Of a DNA stretch of 64,000 nt, positions 52,106 to 59,867 are shown piece by piece; the first letter of the stretch is position 1; every line of letters begins with the position of its first letter. The notes beneath the pieces are model-generated. The model made no database searches. It had not been told where the DNA came from and was given only the letters and a program-made list of their open reading frames with translations. This DNA comes from an uncultured Gammaproteobacteria bacterium. Lineage in GTDB: Bacteria > Patescibacteriota > Patescibacteriia > UBA9934. A program made the position numbers and the translations under genes. Where the stretch lies: assembly GCA_964401485.1 (NCBI GenBank), contig CAYNYL010000003.1, positions 18,365 to 82,364 on the forward strand, read 5' to 3'.

Positions 52106-54778
52106 ATGGTGAAAAAAAATTCGCGTGTTAATCAAAATAAACCGGTATCAACGAATGCTTCCGGTGCCGATTCCGAAGATCGCCGAGCGCGAGCACGCAA
52201 GCTTCTCGAGGAACTCGCTGAAAACAATCGAAAGGCATTTAATGATCAGTTAAAAAAACGTTCTGAATTAGATAAAGCCGTTGGGCGAACGTTGATCGAC
52301 CCCTCTGCAAGCCTGGAGGTTCCAAAGATTGATGAGCCTGATCCGATTGAGGTTCAAGCACTCGATGTTCCAAGTATTTCTGCGACGCCGGAGAATTTGC
52401 GTAACGTTGATTTGCCTGTTGAAACGGTGAGCGTAGAGTACGATGACGAAGCGACCGAAGTGGATGCAGGTAGCGAAGGAGCACATGATCCAATAGTTCG
52501 CATGCCACCAGTTGCGGAACCGGTGCCAGATTATGAATACACGGCAAATCGAGATATTAAGTTTTCGTCTACCCCGATAGATCAGTGGAAGGATGTGATG
52601 CAAGCGGGCGCCTCAGACGGGGTGCCGGTCAGTCAGTCCACGAAAGATAGTGTGAAAATGCGGGAGCGAACAAAGCCCGTAACGCCGGCGCCTCCCGCGC
52701 CCGGTACGAAAAAACCATTTGAGCGTGCAAATAAAACCGTCTCTCCCGAGGACGACGGTGTTGCGATTGAGTTGCCGGAAGATCCCGACGAAGCCAAGGG
52801 AGTGGATAGCGGGGTTGAACGCCGTGACACTTGGGAGCAGCCAAAAACGGTTGATGTTTCTTGGACGGAAAAAGAATCAGCGAGGGCTGGCCTATTCGAC
52901 CGAATTCGTAAAAGCGAATTCTGGAGGTACACGGTCCGAGGTGAGGTGATAGAGGATGCGGTAAAAGTTGGAGCCGATGTTCGTGCCGTTGAAAAAACGG
53001 TACTAGTTTCGAAATTGTTCGATTTTGTAGGAACTGTGAGCGGTTCCCGCATCCTTGTCTCAGGCCTCGCGGCACTGTATCAAAAAGGCCTGGTTTCGGA
53101 AGAGCAACGCCGTATCATTGAGGCGACGACAGCTGATGCTCGCGTAGAACTCGATGGGGGTGAGGCGTTATTTGACGATGATGTTATTCACGAGCGGGCG
53201 GAGCGTATTGGGGAGCGGATCGCGCAATCGAAATATTTAACGGCTGATAAAAAGCGACTTCTCGAACTTAAGCTTAAACAACTTGTCGATGCACGAGATT
53301 CGGCTCTTACAAATCTCGAACAGGGAAAAATTAATGAAGAAATCGTCGACATTATTTCGCGGACACTTAAGGCAAGGGAAGATATCACCACGGTTTCACG
53401 CGATGCGATTAACTTTACACTCCAGTATACGGGGTTGTTTGCGTTGCGGCTTGCCGGTTACGGTCTCGCGACCTCATACAAGGCTGTGCGTCGCTGGGAG
53501 GGTGAAGCGAAACTTGGGCTCGCGGAAAGTAAAGGGGCGGCTGCGGCGAAAGAGTTTACCAGCTGGTGGAACAAGCTTCGAGGTAAGGACGAGGGGCGAC
53601 GTTTGAAAGGGATGGCGGAAGCGGTTTTGACTGCGCTCCCGACAGTTGGCGTTGTCTATCAAGCGAGTGATTGGTCGAATCTTTCCGAGATGGAGTTGGT
53701 TCGGAAGCTTATGAGTAAGATTCGGGTTGAAGAGGTTCCGGAGGTCACGCTGCACGGTGTTGCATATTCGAGTGACACGGCGCATGCGTTGAATCAGGGC
53801 GAGGATGCTTGGAGTGGAAATGGCGCTTTTGATAGTGAAGCGCCGGAACCGGAAATTGAATCGTCGCAAGCTGTGACTGATTTGGATGTACAGTCGCAGA
53901 TTGAGGTTCCGGGTGTCGAACTTGAGCAGGTTCCTGAGATCGCAACTGTTCGTTCGGGTGATGGTGTAACGTGGATTTTGATGCGTCAGTTTAAAGATCG
54001 AGCGGATGAGCTTGGGTATGATGCGACGAAAGATGGGGATGTGCATGAATGGGCACGTCAAAAGGCGCTCGCGCTTGCAAGAGCAAAAGGGTATCTCGAT
54101 GAGCATGGATTTGAAACACGGATTAAAGGTGATGCAGTAGGGTCGATCGGCCTTGTGTTGAATGAGGAAGGAGACGGGTTCACAATCGTACAGAAAACCG
54201 GTGAATTGATGAGCGCAGGTCAGCGAGGTCGATTCTTTGAAGACGTCGAGGTTCCGGCGGCCTCTACGCCCGAATTATCCACAACGTCCGAGGAGGTGGA
54301 ATTACCGGTAGATATCGGTACGGAAGCGCCGGACGACGTCGAGCTTCCGGAGCCTGAGCCAGAGGTCGAGCAAGTTACTCAAGCCCCCGAGGTTGAGGCG
54401 CCGACCGGTGTTGCAGAAATTCGCGTCGACTCATATGGAAAAATGAAGGCTTTTGAGACGATCGACGGTCGTTATACACTCGATCTTTCGAAGTTTGAAG
54501 TTCGACGAAGACACTTGGAAATGATGCGAGAATTAGCGATTTCTCCCGACGATATCGATACACCGGAGGAGCGCGCCTTCTTCCAAAAACTATTCGCCTA
54601 CGCGTATACGCTCGACGAGATGCGAAAGCAGGGAGAGGAGGGTGGTCGAGTCTATACCGGACTCGCAAAAGAGGCTAATCGGCTATTTGTTATGTCCTAT
54701 TCTAGAATGGGGGTCGAGGTGAACCCGGGTAACCCGCTTATCCTCCCACTCCTTAAGCCGGAATACCGAATCCGCTAG
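52106..54778 (+). CDS. Large hypothetical protein (890 aa), acidic and low complexity, no domain recognised
   Basis: Long ORF with host-like composition, tightly coupled to the preceding small ORF. Confidence 0.55.
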   Translation: MVKKNSRVNQNKPVSTNASGADSEDRRARARKLLEELAENNRKAFNDQLKKRSELDKAVGRTLIDPSASLEVPKIDEPDPIEVQALDVPSISATPENLRNVDLPVETVSVEYDDEATEVDAGSEGAHDPIVRMPPVAEPVPDYEYTANRDIKFSSTPIDQWKDVMQAGASDGVPVSQSTKDSVKMRERTKPVTPAPPAPGTKKPFERANKTVSPEDDGVAIELPEDPDEAKGVDSGVERRDTWEQPKTVDVSWTEKESARAGLFDRIRKSEFWRYTVRGEVIEDAVKVGADVRAVEKTVLVSKLFDFVGTVSGSRILVSGLAALYQKGLVSEEQRRIIEATTADARVELDGGEALFDDDVIHERAERIGERIAQSKYLTADKKRLLELKLKQLVDARDSALTNLEQGKINEEIVDIISRTLKAREDITTVSRDAINFTLQYTGLFALRLAGYGLATSYKAVRRWEGEAKLGLAESKGAAAAKEFTSWWNKLRGKDEGRRLKGMAEAVLTALPTVGVVYQASDWSNLSEMELVRKLMSKIRVEEVPEVTLHGVAYSSDTAHALNQGEDAWSGNGAFDSEAPEPEIESSQAVTDLDVQSQIEVPGVELEQVPEIATVRSGDGVTWILMRQFKDRADELGYDATKDGDVHEWARQKALALARAKGYLDEHGFETRIKGDAVGSIGLVLNEEGDGFTIVQKTGELMSAGQRGRFFEDVEVPAASTPELSTTSEEVELPVDIGTEAPDDVELPEPEPEVEQVTQAPEVEAPTGVAEIRVDSYGKMKAFETIDGRYTLDLSKFEVRRRHLEMMRELAISPDDIDTPEERAFFQKLFAYAYTLDEMRKQGEEGGRVYTGLAKEANRLFVMSYSRMGVEVNPGNPLILPLLKPEYRIR

Positions 54779-55226: not shown

Positions 55227-56411
55227 ATGTCAAAACTCCGGATAGCCCTTATCGCTCTTCTTGTCAGTATCGCCGGTTTGGTTGTTGTCCTTCTCGCAAC
55301 TTCCTATCTCATGGGAGACGACAGTGCTCTGCAAAAAGATTCAACCGTCGATGAGTTAATTCTTGAGGTCACCCAGCGTCGCCTCCTTGAAGAAGAGGGC
55401 GGAGTTGATTTTGGCACTGAGAAAGAGATCAATGTTCTTCTCATAGGACTAGACCAGCGTAAGGATTGGGATAATCCGCATTGCGATGCAATTCACATGT
55501 TTACGCTTGATCTGGAAAACTGGACAATGGAAATTACGTCGGTTCCTCGAGGAACGTACGCGTACATTCCGCGCTCGCTTCCGGAGACGGAGTACTATCT
55601 TGCTAATACTTGCTCCTACGAAGGGCTCGACTATGGAATTAAGCAAATGGAAAAGATCATTGGTCGACGGGCGGATTACTATGCGACGGTGAACTTTTCG
55701 CAAGTGATTGGGATCATGCGCATGCTTGATCTTCCGACAACAGAGTCGCTTCAATGGCTTCGGCATCGCCAGAGTTACGCTATTGGAGATCCGCAACGAA
55801 GTCATAACCAGGCCGTATTCATGAAGGACTTGATTCTGTCTCAATTTCATCGGTTCGAGGGTGATTTTAGTCTTCCGGTGATGTATGCGATGTTTCAGTT
55901 TATCGATACGGACATGAGCTTCACGACGGCAAAATCGCTTGTCCGCGGATATCTTGAGTCGAAAATTTATGAGCGTCCGGAGGATATTGTGCTTTCGATG
56001 AAGCCGTACCATGAAACGGTTGATTATCATTTCGATCTTGAGAACCCCGATGCTCAAATTGAGGCACTGCTTCGTCGGATTCGGCCCTATTTGTCGGATG
56101 ATGACTTGTCGGACCGTTCACTTGAGGAGGTGCAGGCGGAGCTCGTTGCCTATCTTCAAGAGCAGTTAGAGGGCGATGCGCTGGTAGACTCGATTGTTGC
56201 AAGGTCGCTTTGGATGCAAATTGAAGATGAGGCTGTACGTAATGACCTGCATTATCGCTACGTTGAGGAATACGTATATTCGCTCATTGAGCGTGATCGA
56301 AAAGAGGATGCGATTGAATACCTAACCTCTTATATTATCGAGGTTGAAGCATTCGGGCTCGATTCATATGCGACGCGAGGGCGTGGGCTCATGCAGTACA
56401 TCGCACAGTAG
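55227..56411 (+). CDS. LCP (LytR-CpsA-Psr) family protein
   Basis: N-terminal TM. INVLLIGLDQR...DAIHMFTLD...TSVPRGTYAYIP...YYATVNFSQVIGIM matches the LCP core. Confidence 0.7.
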   Translation: MSKLRIALIALLVSIAGLVVVLLATSYLMGDDSALQKDSTVDELILEVTQRRLLEEEGGVDFGTEKEINVLLIGLDQRKDWDNPHCDAIHMFTLDLENWTMEITSVPRGTYAYIPRSLPETEYYLANTCSYEGLDYGIKQMEKIIGRRADYYATVNFSQVIGIMRMLDLPTTESLQWLRHRQSYAIGDPQRSHNQAVFMKDLILSQFHRFEGDFSLPVMYAMFQFIDTDMSFTTAKSLVRGYLESKIYERPEDIVLSMKPYHETVDYHFDLENPDAQIEALLRRIRPYLSDDDLSDRSLEEVQAELVAYLQEQLEGDALVDSIVARSLWMQIEDEAVRNDLHYRYVEEYVYSLIERDRKEDAIEYLTSYIIEVEAFGLDSYATRGRGLMQYIAQ

Positions 56412-56427
56412 GGTATACTTTCGGTAT

Positions 56428-57261
56428 ATGGAGGTTGTAAAAAATGATGGGGAGCGGGAGGCTTATTCCGAGGAGAAGGTGATACGGAGCATTGTACATA
56501 CGGGGGCGGATGCAAAAACGGCCGGCGATGTGCTTGCGCGCGTGACGCCTAGGGTGACTGACGGGATGACGACGCGGGAGTTGTACGCGATTGTGCGCGA
56601 GGAGCTTAAGAAGACGAACGTGTGTTTTGGGTGTCGCTATGATTTGCGCGAAGCGATTATTCGACTTGGACCAACTGGATTCCCGTTTGAGCGCTACTTC
56701 TCGGCGATTTTGCGCGAGGAGGGATACGATGCGGAGGTTCCTGAGGGCGAGATTCCCGGAGCCTGTGTCATGCATGAAGTGGATGGACTCGCAAAGAAAG
56801 ATGGAAAGCTCCATTTTATCGAGTGTAAGTTTCGGCAAGACGCAACCGACTACGTCGATCTGAAGAATGCGATGGCGACATGGGCTCGCTTCCTCGATCT
56901 TGTTGACGGCTATGCTTCCGGAAAAAATCCGTACCCGATCACTGATCCGTGGCTTGTAACGAACGCTGCGTTTTCAGATCGAGCGGAGCGGTTTGGACGT
57001 TGTAAGGGGATTCGGCTCATTGGTTGGCATCTTCCAAAGGAACGGCCACTCTCGCAAATCGTAAAGGAGCGACGTATGTGGCCAATCACGATTCTCAATG
57101 AGCTGACTCCAAAGGAGATGGAGGCATTCAGTCGCCATGAAATTATGCTCTGTTCAGAGCTTGCGGGTTATGACCCTGACGATCTCGCGGAGCGACTCGA
57201 CCTGTCTCTTGCTCGGGCCGAGGCGCTTATCCGTCACGCGGGGGAAATTATTGGAGAATGA
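56428..57261 (+). CDS. ATP-cone domain fused to a PD-(D/E)xK (Mrr-like) nuclease fold
   Basis: N-terminal VVKNDGEREAYSEEKVIRSIVHTGADAKTAGDVL (ATP-cone). Central VMHEVDG...KLHFIECKF (D...ExK). Start re-anchored to MEVVKN with TATACT 8 nt upstream. Confidence 0.55.
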   Translation: MEVVKNDGEREAYSEEKVIRSIVHTGADAKTAGDVLARVTPRVTDGMTTRELYAIVREELKKTNVCFGCRYDLREAIIRLGPTGFPFERYFSAILREEGYDAEVPEGEIPGACVMHEVDGLAKKDGKLHFIECKFRQDATDYVDLKNAMATWARFLDLVDGYASGKNPYPITDPWLVTNAAFSDRAERFGRCKGIRLIGWHLPKERPLSQIVKERRMWPITILNELTPKEMEAFSRHEIMLCSELAGYDPDDLAERLDLSLARAEALIRHAGEIIGE

Positions 57262-57812
57262 AGCTCCGAGGCCTTACGGCCTCGGTATCTTCTTACAAAA
57301 CAAGCTTCGCTTGTCCGCTCTCCTCCTTGCCTTGGTGTTCTATGTAGGCCTTGATTTGTCGTTCATTTACTCCGACCGTCGACAGGAAGTAGCCGTCACT
57401 CCAGAAGGCGATTTTCTTGCCATACATCGTCTCTACCGCAGGAAACTTCTTTTGCATCACACGGGAGCTATTTGACTTAAGGATGTTAACGGCTTTCGAG
57501 ATACTCCACTTTGGTGGGATAGACATGAGGAGGTGAACATGATCTACATCCGTGTTTGCCTCAAGGAGCATAAGGTCAGGATAGTTTTTGCAGATGCGGT
57601 GGAAGATCCCAATGCAGTACGCTCCCATGTGATGTTTTAGTACGTGGCGTCGATACTTCGTGACGAACACAAGGTGGTAGCGAGTGTAGTAAACAGCCTG
57701 AGCCTGGCGACGATATTCCATACACCTTGGAGCCTAGCACGAAAGACAAGGCGCGTCGTCGAGCGGAGAAGAGGAAGACACGAGGCCTTACGGCCTCGGT
57801 TTTCTTGTAAAT
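57262..57812 (-). mobile_element. IS200/IS605-family element (tnpA only), bounded by near-identical subterminal hairpins
   Basis: CCGAGGCCTTACGGCCTCGG at 57266..57285 and CGAGGCCTTACGGCCTCG at 57781..57798, in the same orientation. Each is followed by a similar tail of about 20 nt. Confidence 0.6.
57293..57721 (-). CDS. tnpA: IS200-like HUH Y1 transposase TnpA
   Basis: YHLVFVTKYRR and DHVHLL are the HUH and catalytic-Tyr context motifs. 142 aa. Confidence 0.85.
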   Translation of the reverse strand: MEYRRQAQAVYYTRYHLVFVTKYRRHVLKHHMGAYCIGIFHRICKNYPDLMLLEANTDVDHVHLLMSIPPKWSISKAVNILKSNSSRVMQKKFPAVETMYGKKIAFWSDGYFLSTVGVNERQIKAYIEHQGKEESGQAKLVL

Positions 57813-57814
57813 AA

Positions 57815-57840
57815 AAAGCACCGCCTTTCGGCGGTGTTTT
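57815..57840 (-). terminator. rpmB terminator (CACCGCC-tttc-GGCGGTG followed by a T-run on the minus strand)
   Basis: Perfect 7-bp hairpin right after the rpmB stop. Confidence 0.6.
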
Positions 57841-58075: not shown

Positions 58076-58187
58076 AAAAATCGTTCGGGGGAAGTGTACG
58101 GGATTTCTTATATTTCGTCAAGGTTCAGGGAAAAGAGAGCACCCCCGCTCATTCGAGACGGGGGTGCGAGACGTGGGAAGCGAACCT

Positions 58188-59057
58188 CTAGATCAAAACG
58201 GTTGCGTGACCGTAGAAGTCCCGGCGATTGTCGTACGCTGTGTCAGTAAGGGTCACCATTGCGTCTTTACGTCCCGTAACCAGGACGGGTACGTGGTCGT
58301 GTGGCATGGGGCTCGTTCCTGCGGGAAACAGGACTCCAAGTAGCGGGATCGATGGGGCATCTGCCTCTCGACGCCAGTGAATCCATTCCGGGTGCTGTGA
58401 AGCGGCGTATAGCACCTCGAGCCAACTGTGTAGCGTGGGGTTGAGCGCGAGGTCGCCGATTTGTGTCCGGTGGGAGGTGTTTCCAAAGCACACTTTCCGA
58501 ATCGAGAGGGTGTTTGGCACGAACCTCGATTCGGGCATGCTTGGGTTGAGAGCGAGGTCTTCACTCCTCTGCCAAGGATCTCGGGTGTGAAGTAGACTCG
58601 GGTACGTTTCGAGAAACGATTCCCCCCAGCACTTTGAGATCAGGCCAACCGCATATCGATACGTCTCGGTGAGCGTACCGAGCGTCCGAACGATTACCGG
58701 AGTCGCGCACTTCTCGTCGCATTCACCGGTGATCGAAATGCGTGAAGCGGCAAACTGGTATCGATCGCGCATCCGATCAATGTCCTCGCCCCCTACTCCT
58801 TCGTAGTTCCGGACGGTTTGGATAAGATCGTCAAGCGGAGTCCAGCGTCCGTGGACGGCGCGAAACGAGGGTATGGTTCTCGTGAGCTTGAACATGCGTT
58901 CCGCAATGTCAGCTCTATTTGCGATGAGACCGACCATATCGCCGTCGAAGCCCGCGGCCTCGAGTTTGCGTTCGAATTGGTCCCAAGTACCTTTCGGCAC
59001 CTCTGCGAATCGGCGGGCCATGGCGGCGGGCCTCCCTCTGTTGTCACGGGCGGGCAT
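58188..59057 (-). CDS. Hypothetical GC-rich protein (289 aa)
   Basis: GGGAGG RBS, with a TTGACT-17-GATGAT promoter upstream at 59110..59138. No family recognised. Confidence 0.5.
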   Translation of the reverse strand: MPARDNRGRPAAMARRFAEVPKGTWDQFERKLEAAGFDGDMVGLIANRADIAERMFKLTRTIPSFRAVHGRWTPLDDLIQTVRNYEGVGGEDIDRMRDRYQFAASRISITGECDEKCATPVIVRTLGTLTETYRYAVGLISKCWGESFLETYPSLLHTRDPWQRSEDLALNPSMPESRFVPNTLSIRKVCFGNTSHRTQIGDLALNPTLHSWLEVLYAASQHPEWIHWRREADAPSIPLLGVLFPAGTSPMPHDHVPVLVTGRKDAMVTLTDTAYDNRRDFYGHATVLI

Positions 59058-59209
59058 TCTTTACAGCACTATGCTGATTGAACGCGGGCCTAATTGGCGT
59101 GACGGAAAAATCATCCTTGGAAAATGGTAAAAAGTCAATATAAACAAAAGCCCCGACCAATCGAGCTGTCTCGAAGGTCGGGGACGGGTAGGGGGCGGGC
59201 GGGCCGGCT

Positions 59210-59779
59210 CTAGGGGATCACCCACCTTGAGCTACGCTGGTTCCCGATCTGGACGACGATCCCGCGCGATTCGAGCTCACGAAGGATGGCCAGTGTCTCC
59301 GGGTACGGGTGGTCGATCGTTTTCGCGATGGCCGATCCCGAAAGCCCGAGGGCGTCTTTGATCAAGAGATCGACGATCTGTGTTTCGTGGTCGGGGGGCT
59401 TGACCTTGAGGACGAACTTTTCGCGAATCGCGAAGAAGCTCTGCCGTCCCTCGATCGTATCGAACTGGCCGCGACCCGAGGCCTTGATCGCCTCTTGGAT
59501 CGCGGTTCGCGCGATGAAGATGTCGAGCGCTTCTCGCACGTCTTCCTCAAGCGCGTTCGTCAGCTGATTCTGCGCGTTCATGCACAGAAGGTCGTCGAGA
59601 ACCGGGAACAGCCTTGCGACGAACTCGTCAAGAAGGCAGGCCTTCTTGACCGTCGTCCTGACAAAGAGCGCACGAAGCGCTCCATCAGCAACCATTCTAC
59701 GAAGGACGGCAGCTGATTGTGGGAATGCTGTGAGAGCAATCCCGCAAACGCCGTCGACCGTATGGGCGTTGTGAATCAT
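59210..59779 (-). CDS. Hypothetical GC-rich protein with C-terminal winged-HTH-like tail
   Basis: Start re-anchored to MIHNAHT (AGGAGG RBS, TTGACT-17-TAGTTT promoter at 59809..59837). C-terminal LGLSGSAIAKTIDHPYPETLAILRELESRGIVVQIGNQRSSRWVIP resembles a wHTH. Confidence 0.45.
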   Translation of the reverse strand: MIHNAHTVDGVCGIALTAFPQSAAVLRRMVADGALRALFVRTTVKKACLLDEFVARLFPVLDDLLCMNAQNQLTNALEEDVREALDIFIARTAIQEAIKASGRGQFDTIEGRQSFFAIREKFVLKVKPPDHETQIVDLLIKDALGLSGSAIAKTIDHPYPETLAILRELESRGIVVQIGNQRSSRWVIP

Positions 59780-59867
59780 TGATTCCTCCTGTCCAAAAGG
59801 GACCAGATAAACTACCATAAATCACCGAAAAAGTCAATGTTTACGAGGTGTGGTAAAATCGAGCTAC

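Follow-up and report, generated by a model that had tools for sequence, protein, structure and literature searches.

An ATP-cone fused to a predicted AF1548-type nuclease: a candidate nucleotide-gated endonuclease of Patescibacteria, DPANN archaea and other lineages

RESULTS

The locus and its inheritance

The window analysed here, a 64,000-nucleotide stretch of DNA, carries a complete gene for a predicted three-domain nuclease, which is followed by an IS200-like insertion and a hairpin terminator (Table 1). The gene lies within a longer, TTG-started open reading frame on the same strand (56344..57261); since the N-termini of the homologues coincide with the ATG at 56428 (MEVVK...), the boundaries given in an initial annotation of this DNA, 56428-57261, are right. 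A LytR_cpsA_psr-family gene directly upstream is a probable co-transcription partner of the nuclease gene, and the order HU, LytR, ATP-cone nuclease is repeated in the relatives L001-L004. The neighbours in the window are housekeeping genes whose order is kept in relatives: HU is a direct or close neighbour, RNase HII is located ~5 kb upstream of the nuclease gene, and UvrD lies within 2.6-5 kb of it, as is also the case in L001-L004, at the P0013 locus and in L094; in addition, dnaN/dnaA are found near the nuclease gene in L092. The position among HU, LytR, L28 and UvrD is kept down to 48% protein identity, in Uhrbacteria-like relatives, and dN/dS against the 84%-identical orthologue in L001 is 0.07. 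These sequence comparisons indicate that the nuclease gene is chromosomal, vertically inherited and under strong purifying selection. The low dN/dS, the many homologues and the match to a solved structure (see below) also show that the reading frame is no product of chance.

The initial annotation had placed the end of the gene 5 nt before an IS200-like hairpin, and this spacing is correct, the stop codon ending at 57261 and the stem starting at 57266. The 8-bp hairpin was detected by folding (-11.8 kcal/mol, z -5.0), by the terminator scan and by blastn. A link between the nuclease gene and the element did not hold: in the closest relative, L001, the IS200-like segment is missing and an equivalent terminator hairpin directly follows the nuclease stop codon. 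Judged by this comparison, the element is a recent, lineage-specific insertion between the nuclease stop codon and the native terminator, which it now separates in the window. A functional tie between the element and the nuclease gene was rejected because of its absence from that relative.

Table 1. Coordinates of the features at the nuclease locus (positions in the window)
Feature	Position	Strand	Remarks
LytR_cpsA_psr-family gene, upstream	55227..56411	+	Pfam; 16 nt to nuclease start codon
ATP-cone / PD-(D/E)xK / (HhH)2 gene	56428..57261	+	ORF list; complete, 277 aa, stop codon included
ATP-cone domain, aa 1-80	56428..56667	+	beta-hairpin aa 2-12, then helical bundle
Junction motif L-G-P-T-G-F-P-F-E, aa 80-88	56665..56691	+	nearly invariant
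AF1548-type PD-(D/E)xK nuclease core (predicted), aa 81-215	56668..57072	+	catalytic set E88, D119, E132, K134
D119 (in VMHEVDG)	56782-56784		
E132-x-K134 (in FIECKF)	56821-56829		
C-terminal (HhH)2-like helical domain, aa 216-277	57073..57258	+	presumed DNA-backbone binding
IS200-like insertion	57262..57812	-	Pfam Y1_Tnp, E 9.5e-34; adjoins nuclease gene
Identical 20-nt hairpins of the IS200-like element	57267-57286 and 57781-57800		blastn repeat
tnpA of the IS200-like element	57293..57721	-	
Native GC-rich hairpin terminator	57819..57836	.	terminator scan; common to nuclease gene and convergent rpmB

Domain architecture of the protein

Residues 1-80 form an ATP-cone, the ATP- or dATP-binding module of ribonucleotide reductase (RNR) and NrdR, and nucleotide binding is predicted here as well. 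In the AF2 model an N-terminal beta-hairpin 'roof' lies over a four-helix bundle with pLDDT above 90, and a family profile of this region matched NrdD (E 9e-4) and NrdR (E 1.5e-3) in the PDB. The Pfam ATP-cone model (PF03477) covers residues 1-62 at E 2.2e-5 and 25.3 bits, 0.5 bit under its cut-off of 25.8, and precomputed PF03477 matches are present in most homologues. The N-terminal alignment, whose members are only 31-55% identical, shows no variation at K5, K17, T49 and G8, and G8 is nearly invariant in the family as a whole. The modelled fold, the profile matches to NrdD and NrdR and the invariant residues support the proposal that the N-terminus is an ATP-cone. K5 is the counterpart of the beta-hairpin lysine that binds nucleotide phosphates in NrdR and NrdD; this lysine is K50 in Streptomyces coelicolor NrdR, with R51 next to it (PMC9110341), and Lys7 in P. 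copri NrdD (PMC11226230). In the nuclease family the position after K5 is variable (N6 in the window protein; K, R, S, A or H elsewhere), and because the arginine found beside the lysine in RNR and NrdR is therefore not conserved, the ligand preference may differ from ATP/dATP. For the ATP-cones of RNR, binding is reported for ATP and dATP only, with oligomerization as the mode of action (PMC11226230).

The cone is joined to the nuclease through an LGPTGFxFE motif; an alignment of 47 sequences shows G81, P82, G84, F87 and E88 of this motif without exception. In the AF2 model (mean pLDDT 95.1, pTM 0.88; three confident domains) the last cone helix (73-78) runs directly into the first nuclease helix (87-97), which bears E88. 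The nuclease core has the alpha-beta-beta-beta-alpha-beta arrangement of the PD-(D/E)xK fold, and its catalytic motif is spread over helix 1 (E), the beginning of strand 2 (D) and strand 3 ((D/E)xK). The D...ExK pattern that had been pointed out in VMHEVDG...FIECKF corresponds to D119, E132 and K134; together with E88 these residues are invariant in the same 47 sequences, which are 31-84% identical to the window protein, and R154, D157, N179, C113 and C192 are further invariant positions of the core. The closest relative is AF1548 of Archaeoglobus fulgidus (PDB 1Y88; phmmer E 1.9e-26), whose predicted residues D38, E51 and K53 align with D119, E132 and K134. A check for a missing PD-(D/E)xK fold or a broken triad found the fold present and the catalytic residues intact, in agreement with the earlier proposal of a PD-(D/E)xK nuclease. 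The description as Mrr-like stood in part: Pfam Mrr_cat (PF04471) matches residues 84-198 at 22.1 bits, above its cut-off of 21, but the nearest relative is AF1548 and the N-terminal DNA-binding domain of Mrr is absent. A third domain had been overlooked, namely the C-terminal, putatively DNA-binding (HhH)2-like domain, which is matched by Pfam AF1548-like_C (PF22357; residues 219-275) and resembles the RAD51 N-terminal domain in fold comparison. At the level of predicted structure the model confirms an ATP-cone fused to an intact AF1548-type PD-(D/E)xK nuclease, followed by a putative (HhH)2-like domain.

Distribution of the fusion

A word-indexed search returned 224 homologues, and a profile search returned 2069 representative clusters at E <= 1e-3, with 631 of these at E <= 1e-30. 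This census of the architecture, which had been suggested with the initial annotation, arrived at no fewer than 631 clusters (50% identity) and a presence in at least 583 species genomes, with hosts among Patescibacteria and DPANN archaea, whose genomes are reduced, Chlamydiota and many cultured Flavobacteriaceae, including the marine genera Dokdonia, Polaribacter, Maribacter and Tenacibaculum. Protein length is 266-305 aa in 147 of the 150 best cluster representatives, nearly all of which align to the profile over its whole length as a single segment; as far as these alignments go, the fusion architecture is fixed across the family. No copy was found in 50,697 phage records, and only two of 72,556 plasmids had one.

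Gene neighbourhoods in other lineages

A comparison of neighbourhoods across genomes, proposed earlier with defence islands in mind, revealed stress, salvage, repair and housekeeping neighbours and no defence context at the loci examined. Of the 65 Bacteroidota loci, 55 have a same-strand beta-CASP/RMMBL gene as the next gene downstream, the two being separated by a median of ~3 nt. The Bacteroidota clusters are rich in Usp and HSP20 genes, carry a response-regulator/cNMP-binding/Crp-type regulator and, at one locus, include a gene for a ribosome-hibernation factor. In Pontibacter (Cytophagia) and Criblamydia (Chlamydiota), two distant lineages, the ATP-cone nuclease stands in a same-strand, operon-like row with genes for an MBL/beta-CASP protein, a member of the archaeal-type thymidine/AMP-phosphorylase family and PRPP synthase. 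These raw counts overstate the number of independent observations: most of the Bacteroidota loci come from a single family, Flavobacteriaceae, and one gene cluster recurs as copies in the Criblamydia-type contigs L014, L020 and L091. Genes for beta-CASP, phosphorylase, PRPP synthase, phosphoketolase, GlgP and acetate kinase were found neither in the 64-kb window nor at the 17 Patescibacteria/DPANN loci examined.

A different setting was found in Paceibacterota, where a gene for a Cas4-like PD-(D/E)xK protein follows the nuclease gene at five loci, and at three of these genes for an MGMT-type DNA-binding protein and a uracil-DNA glycosylase come next. In L093 an integrase/primase element adjoins the nuclease gene. 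When the neighbours were searched with PADLOC, nothing emerged but a generic similarity of UvrD to GajB; Gabija was rejected, since GajA is not present and the helicase is syntenic in relatives.

DISCUSSION

A proposed regulated first cut in nucleic-acid turnover

We incline to the reading that the protein is an adenine-nucleotide-gated endonuclease which, during energy or nucleotide stress, makes the initial, regulated incision in the turnover of nucleic acids or the salvage of nucleotides. The activity of a chromosomal endonuclease would be set by the adenine-nucleotide pool: binding of ATP or dATP (or ADP/AMP) to the cone may alter how the protein oligomerizes or where its first catalytic helix lies, and this change would switch nucleic-acid binding and cleavage on or off, as the cones of RNR and NrdR act via oligomerization. 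The (HhH)2 domain would grip the DNA duplex, and DNA is a more likely substrate than RNA. The neighbourhoods in other lineages suggest that the beta-CASP partner, as an exonuclease, would receive the products, as would, in some lineages, an enzyme of the nucleoside/AMP-phosphorylase family and PRPP synthase. In the genome of the window, probably that of a Patescibacterium, housekeeping genes surround the nuclease gene and the salvage partners are not next to it; because these partners are likewise missing at the Patescibacteria/DPANN loci examined, the salvage role is extrapolated to these organisms across ~33% sequence identity.

More tentatively, the nuclease may be the allosteric entry point of an unrecognized catabolism and salvage pathway that is switched by ATP/dATP or adenylate status. 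The order of such a pathway would be endonuclease, beta-CASP exonuclease, archaeal-type nucleoside/AMP phosphorylase and PRPP synthase, possibly followed by phosphoketolase and acetate kinase. If this were true, the pathway would be the degradative mirror image of ATP-cone control over ribonucleotide reductase. Patescibacteria and DPANN archaea are generally held to be dependent on scavenged nucleotides, and in these organisms the nuclease would then gate the DNA or RNA that is cannibalized for balanced (d)NTP pools.

Alternative readings

A possible but less probable reading is that the protein works in DNA repair or as a structure-specific endonuclease resembling NucS/EndoMS or Hjc. It would have the same molecular switch, with dNTP/ATP status as its licence, and would cut damaged, mismatched or branched chromosomal DNA, with no bulk degradation. 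The likeness of the (HhH)2 domain to the RAD51 N-terminal domain is in accordance with such a role, as are the Cas4-like, MGMT-type and uracil-DNA glycosylase genes in Paceibacterota, the presence of UvrD, HU and RNase HII in the window and of dnaN/dnaA in L092, and the name 'Holliday junction resolvase' that JGI gives to some members. However, the repair neighbours are a matter of lineage-specific synteny at three to five related loci, and UvrD and HU are commonplace housekeeping genes in small genomes. The resemblance to Hjc is at the level of fold only, with the Pfam Hjc model (PF01870) scoring 13.6 bits against a threshold of 21.1 (E 0.064); the N-terminal domain and PCNA-binding motif of NucS/EndoMS are absent from the window protein, which adds ATP-cone and (HhH)2 domains that distinguish it from NucS/EndoMS and Hjc alike. 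The strongest and most widespread linkage of the family is to the beta-CASP nuclease in stress clusters and to nucleotide-salvage enzymes, which speaks for turnover or salvage over repair.

It is unlikely that the ATP-cone is a degenerate structural or oligomerization domain with no nucleotide binding, which would leave a constitutive AF1548-like nuclease or a non-catalytic DNA-binding protein. The Pfam score slightly below threshold, the reduction of the canonical Lys-Arg pair to Lys-x and the existence of AF1548 as a stand-alone fold with no ATP-cone are what such a protein might be expected to present. Against this, the invariance of K5, K17 and T49, and nearly of G8, in such divergent sequences would be difficult to account for if there were no ligand site, the cone is modelled with high confidence, and the catalytic residues are themselves invariant.

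The initial annotation had considered a defence or stress effector plausible. An anti-phage or stress effector of the 'abortive' kind would be a nuclease set loose by an infection-induced shift in the ATP/dATP pool, and our results make this a distinctly improbable role. A self-contained single-gene design, the mobile elements that adjoin the gene in the window and in L093, and weak local PADLOC matches to CARF_PDDEXK (56 residues, E 8e-4) and Can1 (25 residues, E 0.012) would be compatible with defence; yet there was no significant whole-protein match to a defence-system model in PADLOC-DB v2, and the insertion sequence is a recent arrival that the nearest relative does not have. Location and distribution among close relatives were neither variable or mobile nor patchy, as the synteny in Uhrbacteria-like relatives illustrates, and the low dN/dS and the near-complete absence from phage and plasmid records likewise argue against defence. 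In addition, the uniform architecture and length of the family are unlike the shuffling that is typical of defence genes. The NCBI name 'restriction endonuclease' would imply a type IV, modification-dependent enzyme similar to Mrr, and this is highly improbable: Mrr_cat scores above its cut-off and the catalytic domains of MspJI and AspBHI are among the fold matches, but the protein has an ATP-cone at its N-terminus and no Mrr_N, SRA or other modification-reading domain (Pfam), the loci examined include no methyltransferase or restriction-modification context, and neither the stable inheritance of the gene in very small genomes nor its linkage to stress and salvage genes fits such an enzyme.

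Relationship to known ligand-gated nucleases and to AF1548

On the modelled structure, an ATP-cone-gated nuclease is best read as adding the ATP-cone to the types of sensor in known ligand-gated nucleases. Can2, Card1, Cdn1 and Can1, of CRISPR type III and CBASS, are similarly ligand-gated PD-(D/E)xK nucleases, but their sensor is a CARF or SAVED domain and their ligand a dedicated second messenger, whereas the presumed ligand of the present family is a primary metabolite, ATP or dATP; moreover, this family has no cyclase or CRISPR partner and stands in a non-defensive context. With the RNR proteins NrdA, NrdB and NrdD and with NrdR the window protein has the ATP-cone in common, and the output differs, being a reductase or a Zn-ribbon DNA binder in those proteins and a predicted nuclease here. 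The fusion would carry the control logic of the ATP-cone from DNA-precursor synthesis over to nucleic-acid breakdown, and the family, once characterized, would offer a simple, single-protein system for studying how a metabolite gates a nuclease outside immunity.

In the databases the family appears only as "ATP cone domain-containing protein" or "restriction endonuclease", and the latter name, like "Holliday junction resolvase", is probably misleading; NCBIfam contains no family-level model that matches the window protein. A full-text literature search, which did not cover the original ATP-cone paper, found no description of an ATP-cone-nuclease fusion, and in the literature searched, experimental work on the ATP-cone concerns ribonucleotide reductases and the repressor NrdR only, in which it ties the synthesis of dNTPs to the ATP/dATP ratio. 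AF1548 combines Mrr_cat with AF1548-like_C and is without an ATP-cone, only ~24 residues of its chain preceding the aligned region; as a structural-genomics 'protein of unknown function', it supplies a fold and not a function. The sole relevant text found was the 2007 GOS paper, in which AF1548 is a predicted endonuclease, and characterization of the present family would give this orphan structure, solved in 2004, a functional context.

Gene, domain architecture and fold

The window gene encodes a PD-(D/E)xK nuclease of the AF1548 branch with a bona fide ATP-cone. The reading frame proposed in the initial annotation is real: its ATG at 56428 (MEVVK...) is the start point of all homologues, the stop codon of the upstream gene lies 16 nt before it, and comparison with the 84%-identical orthologue (locus L001) gave dN 0.12, dS about 1.7 and dN/dS 0.07, indicating strong purifying selection.

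We built an AlphaFold2 model from a 47-sequence alignment (mean pLDDT 95.1, pTM 0.88), and the structure check suggested for the nuclease fold came out positive, with a classic core and intact active-site residues. The ATP-cone recognized earlier was likewise borne out: in addition to the Pfam match, which falls just under its gathering score, the ATP-cones of NrdR and RNR superpose on the model at 1.7-1.9 A over about 79 residues (Foldseek), concordant with the fold matches tabulated below, and a profile of residues 1-80 from 22 family members, searched against the PDB, found the P. copri NrdD ATP-cone (E 9e-4) and E. coli NrdR (E 1.5e-3). The top three matches of that search were designed helical-repeat proteins and were set aside as artefacts. 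Residues 92-276 match AF1548 of Archaeoglobus fulgidus (1Y88; phmmer against the PDB, E 1.9e-26), a structural-genomics protein of unassigned function, for which the 2007 GOS paper (PMC1821046) predicted endonuclease activity, naming D38, E51 and K53 as catalytic. These align with D119, E132 and K134 of the window protein, which lie in the motifs first quoted from the sequence (D119 in VMHEVDG, E132-x-K134 in FIECKF). The C-terminal domain is probably of DNA-binding type.

Coordinates of genes, domains and gene rows (nt in the window or in the locus named; aa in the window protein)
Feature	Position	Strand	Evidence or remark
ATP-cone nuclease gene	56428..57261	+	ORF list; within longer TTG-started ORF 56344..57261
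tnpA of IS200-like element	57293..57721	-	Y1_Tnp, E 9.5e-34
289-aa orphan ORF	58188..59057	-	inside segment absent from L001
ATP-cone	aa 1-62		Pfam, E 2.2e-5; 25.3 bits vs gathering score 25.8
Mrr_cat	aa 84-198		Pfam, 22.1 bits vs gathering score 21
AF1548-like_C	aa 219-275		Pfam, 23.3 bits vs gathering score 23.9
Beta-hairpin and helical bundle	aa 1-78		AlphaFold2 model
Nuclease core, alpha-beta-beta-beta-alpha-beta	aa 87-198		AlphaFold2 model
C-terminal domain, helical	aa 208-275		AlphaFold2 model
Four-gene row, Pontibacter plasmid	L090 1972-6597		
Four-gene row, Criblamydia plasmid	L091 7001-11608		

Fold matches of the AlphaFold2 model
Match	Score	Part matched
1Y88 (AF1548)	19.7 (181 residues, 2.4 A)	nuclease and C-terminal domain
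NucS	10.7	nuclease
NrdR	10.4	ATP-cone
NrdB ATP-cone	10.1	ATP-cone
AspBHI	9.4	nuclease
Card1	8.3	nuclease
RAD51 / RAD51C N-terminal domains, NusA AR domains	about 7-8	C-terminal domain

Family distribution and gene neighbourhoods

The census of this architecture called for in the initial annotation returned 2069 cluster representatives at E <= 1e-3 and 631 at E <= 1e-30 from 1.84 billion representatives; because 147 of the 150 best are 266-305 aa long and nearly all align with the full profile in a single stretch, we regard the three-domain architecture as fixed. Relatives are encoded in at least 583 genomes (one genome scanned per species). The 80 loci listed include many from cultured Flavobacteriaceae (Dokdonia, Polaribacter, Tenacibaculum, Maribacter, Xanthomarina, Lacinutrix and others), which makes the protein readily testable, together with Patescibacteria (Paceibacterota, and contigs labelled Saccharibacteria), Woesearchaeota, other archaea and one Chlamydiae MAG. 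The family is already visible in databases, and the gene itself is therefore no discovery; its names there are generic ('ATP cone domain-containing protein', 'restriction endonuclease', 'Holliday junction resolvase', 'hypothetical'), NCBIfam has no model for it, and the literature open to search yielded neither a publication nor an experiment dealing with the fusion.

Neighbourhoods were compared by calling and clustering ORFs in 90 loci and annotating the recurrent clusters. In Bacteroidota (L005, L008, L016-L089; example L008 1-12500), a beta-CASP/RMMBL metallo-beta-lactamase nuclease gene with sub-threshold matches to aCPSF1 and Cas14 lies directly downstream on the same strand in 55 of the 65 loci with enough downstream sequence, at a median gap of about 3 nt. 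Upstream are tandem-Usp arrays (52 loci; 3-6 Usp genes in the conserved cluster), a PAS histidine kinase, a response regulator that combines cNMP-binding with Crp-type HTH domains, and a conserved 137-aa protein weakly similar to eRF1 domain 2; downstream are a 147-aa coiled-coil protein and HSP20, and in the Polaribacter locus L008 a ribosome-hibernation-factor gene is found upstream. The grouping has the look of a cluster for stress or dormancy. Some Flavobacteriaceae carry two paralogues (L052 and L054 in Lacinutrix himadriensis, L065 and L086 in Xanthomarina sp.), one with a beta-CASP partner and the other without.

The plasmid copies span two phyla (Pontibacter actiniarum, Bacteroidota; Criblamydia sequanensis, Chlamydiota), and on both the nuclease gene opens a row of four genes on one strand, the next three encoding, in this order, an MBL/beta-CASP protein, a 'thymidine phosphorylase family protein' and ribose-phosphate pyrophosphokinase. 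The phosphorylase scores above the archaeal-type TIGR02645 threshold and just under that of the AMP-phosphorylase model, and the PRPP synthase belongs to the PRK07199 subfamily. Phosphoketolase and GlgP lie upstream of the Criblamydia row and acetate kinase downstream of it; L014 and L020 duplicate this cluster almost exactly and do not count as independent observations.

The Paceibacterota neighbourhood is small and DNA-repair-flavoured, in the order YceG, MnmA, ATP-cone nuclease, Cas4-like PD-(D/E)xK (PDDEXK_1) gene (L013, L032, L058, L066, L078), MGMT-type DNA-binding protein (L032, L058, L066) and uracil-DNA glycosylase (L032, L066). On other Patescibacteria-like contigs the gene adjoins Ni-SOD and its protease, or lies near dnaN/dnaA, near phosphoketolase, RNase Y and HU, or near glycogen genes and UvrD. 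Neither the window nor the Patescibacteria/DPANN loci examined hold the beta-CASP, phosphorylase or PRPP-synthase partners. On one Patescibacteria contig (L093 7735-12561) the gene has as neighbours a serine recombinase and a Toprim/AAA_25 primase-helicase gene, which probably mark an integrated mobile element.

In the window, RNase HII, tRNA-Thr, an 890-aa orphan gene, HU and a LytR_cpsA_psr gene precede the nuclease gene, which is followed by the IS200-like tnpA (-), rpmB/L28 (-), 289-aa and 202-aa orphans (both -), UvrD (+) and a protein with a weak, below-cut-off Pfam match to the anti-sigma-K factor RskA C-terminal domain. The relative L001 (84% identity) and Candidatus Uhrbacteria contigs (48% protein identity) keep the order HU - LytR - gene ... 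L28 ... UvrD, which is rearranged at one further locus; the host is therefore probably a Patescibacterium of Uhrbacteria type. The L010 / L001 contig (CAZBFR010000015.1), the closest among species representatives, is itself Uhrbacteria-like (Patescibacteria) in gene order and homologues, so that its title, 'uncultured Gammaproteobacteria bacterium', is probably a mislabel; the titles of several further 'binchicken' MAGs (L025, L041, L072, L081) seem just as doubtful. The context of the window gene is housekeeping, not defence.

Proposed mechanism and role

Among 47 homologues with 31-84% identity to the window protein, no variation is seen at K5, G81, P82, G84, F87 and E88 in the cone and junction, G111, C113, E117, D119, E132, K134, R154, D157, N179 and C192 in the nuclease core, and W200, P219 and T221 toward the C-terminus; for G8, K17 and T49 conservation is 90% or higher. 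The DGxxTxxxY segment containing T49 may resemble DGIKTSDIH (T55) in E. coli NrdA; in P. copri NrdD the position aligned to T49 is Val. The cone keeps its key Lys: K5 is the counterpart of the hairpin lysines that contact nucleotide phosphates, K50 in NrdR (PMC9110341) and Lys7 in NrdD (PMC11226230), whereas the position of the adjoining NrdR R51 / NrdD Arg8 is variable in this family (N6 here). Because of the LGPTGFxFE junction, itself nearly invariant, the cone's last helix stands immediately before the helix bearing catalytic E88, an obvious path, we infer, for allosteric coupling. C113 (window 56764-56766) and C192 (57001-57003) both align to Cys in AF1548 and may pair structurally, bind a metal or act as a redox switch.

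Binding of an adenine nucleotide to the cone would switch nuclease activity, probably through oligomerisation, by which dATP inhibits the class I RNRs studied so far (PMC11226230) and NrdR senses nucleotides (PMC9110341). In its logic of sensor plus PD-(D/E)xK nuclease, such a protein may be likened to the CARF-nuclease effectors Can2 and Card1; unlike theirs, its sensor is predicted to be for a primary metabolite. The pairing with beta-CASP genes, the stress-type clusters and the operons shared with phosphorylase and PRPP-synthase genes lead us to favour a part in the regulated turnover of nucleic acids or the salvage of nucleotides when energy or nucleotides are under stress, a role that would extend to the window protein by homology only (about 33% identity).

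The leading alternative, a repair or structure-specific nuclease that nucleotide status would license, is supported by the fold neighbours NucS and Hjc and by the repair genes nearby in Paceibacterota and Uhrbacteria-like genomes. The defence effector initially proposed is less likely, given the conserved housekeeping synteny, no significant PADLOC match for the nuclease or its neighbours except UvrD, and, by tblastn, no copy in 50,697 phage records and copies on only 2 of 72,556 plasmids. Gabija was rejected, the UvrD-GajB likeness being generic and GajA absent. Type IV restriction is also less likely: the 'Mrr-like' label is right insofar as the Mrr_cat match exceeds its cut-off, but the protein is not Mrr, nor Hjc or a known defence protein, because each of these identities fails on a defining feature. 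A cone that is a dead sensor is less likely in view of the invariance of K5 and, in sub-alignments, of K17 and T49.

Variable segments and the IS200-like element

The 890-aa ORF (window 52106-54778) has a sole, sub-threshold match, to DUF3811. The segment between rpmB and UvrD (58172-59510) is variable and orphan, with no counterpart in L001; neither the 289-aa ORF nor the adjoining 202-aa ORF (59210..59818) has a match in Pfam, NCBIfam or PADLOC.

Alignment with L001 also revealed window 57262-57812 as an insertion. In L001 a GC-rich hairpin terminator comes straight after the stop codon, with the end of convergent rpmB next to it, whereas in the window a very small, roughly 550-bp IS200-like element sits exactly between the stop codon and the bidirectional terminator (57819-57836). 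The nuclease gene does end 5 nt before the IS200-like hairpin, as first noticed, but this adjacency is incidental, the insertion being absent from L001 and the coding sequence intact. Both ends of the element carry identical 20-nt hairpins, CCGAGGCCTTACGGCCTCGG (57267-57286 and 57781-57800), with a folding energy of -11.8 kcal/mol (z -5.0).
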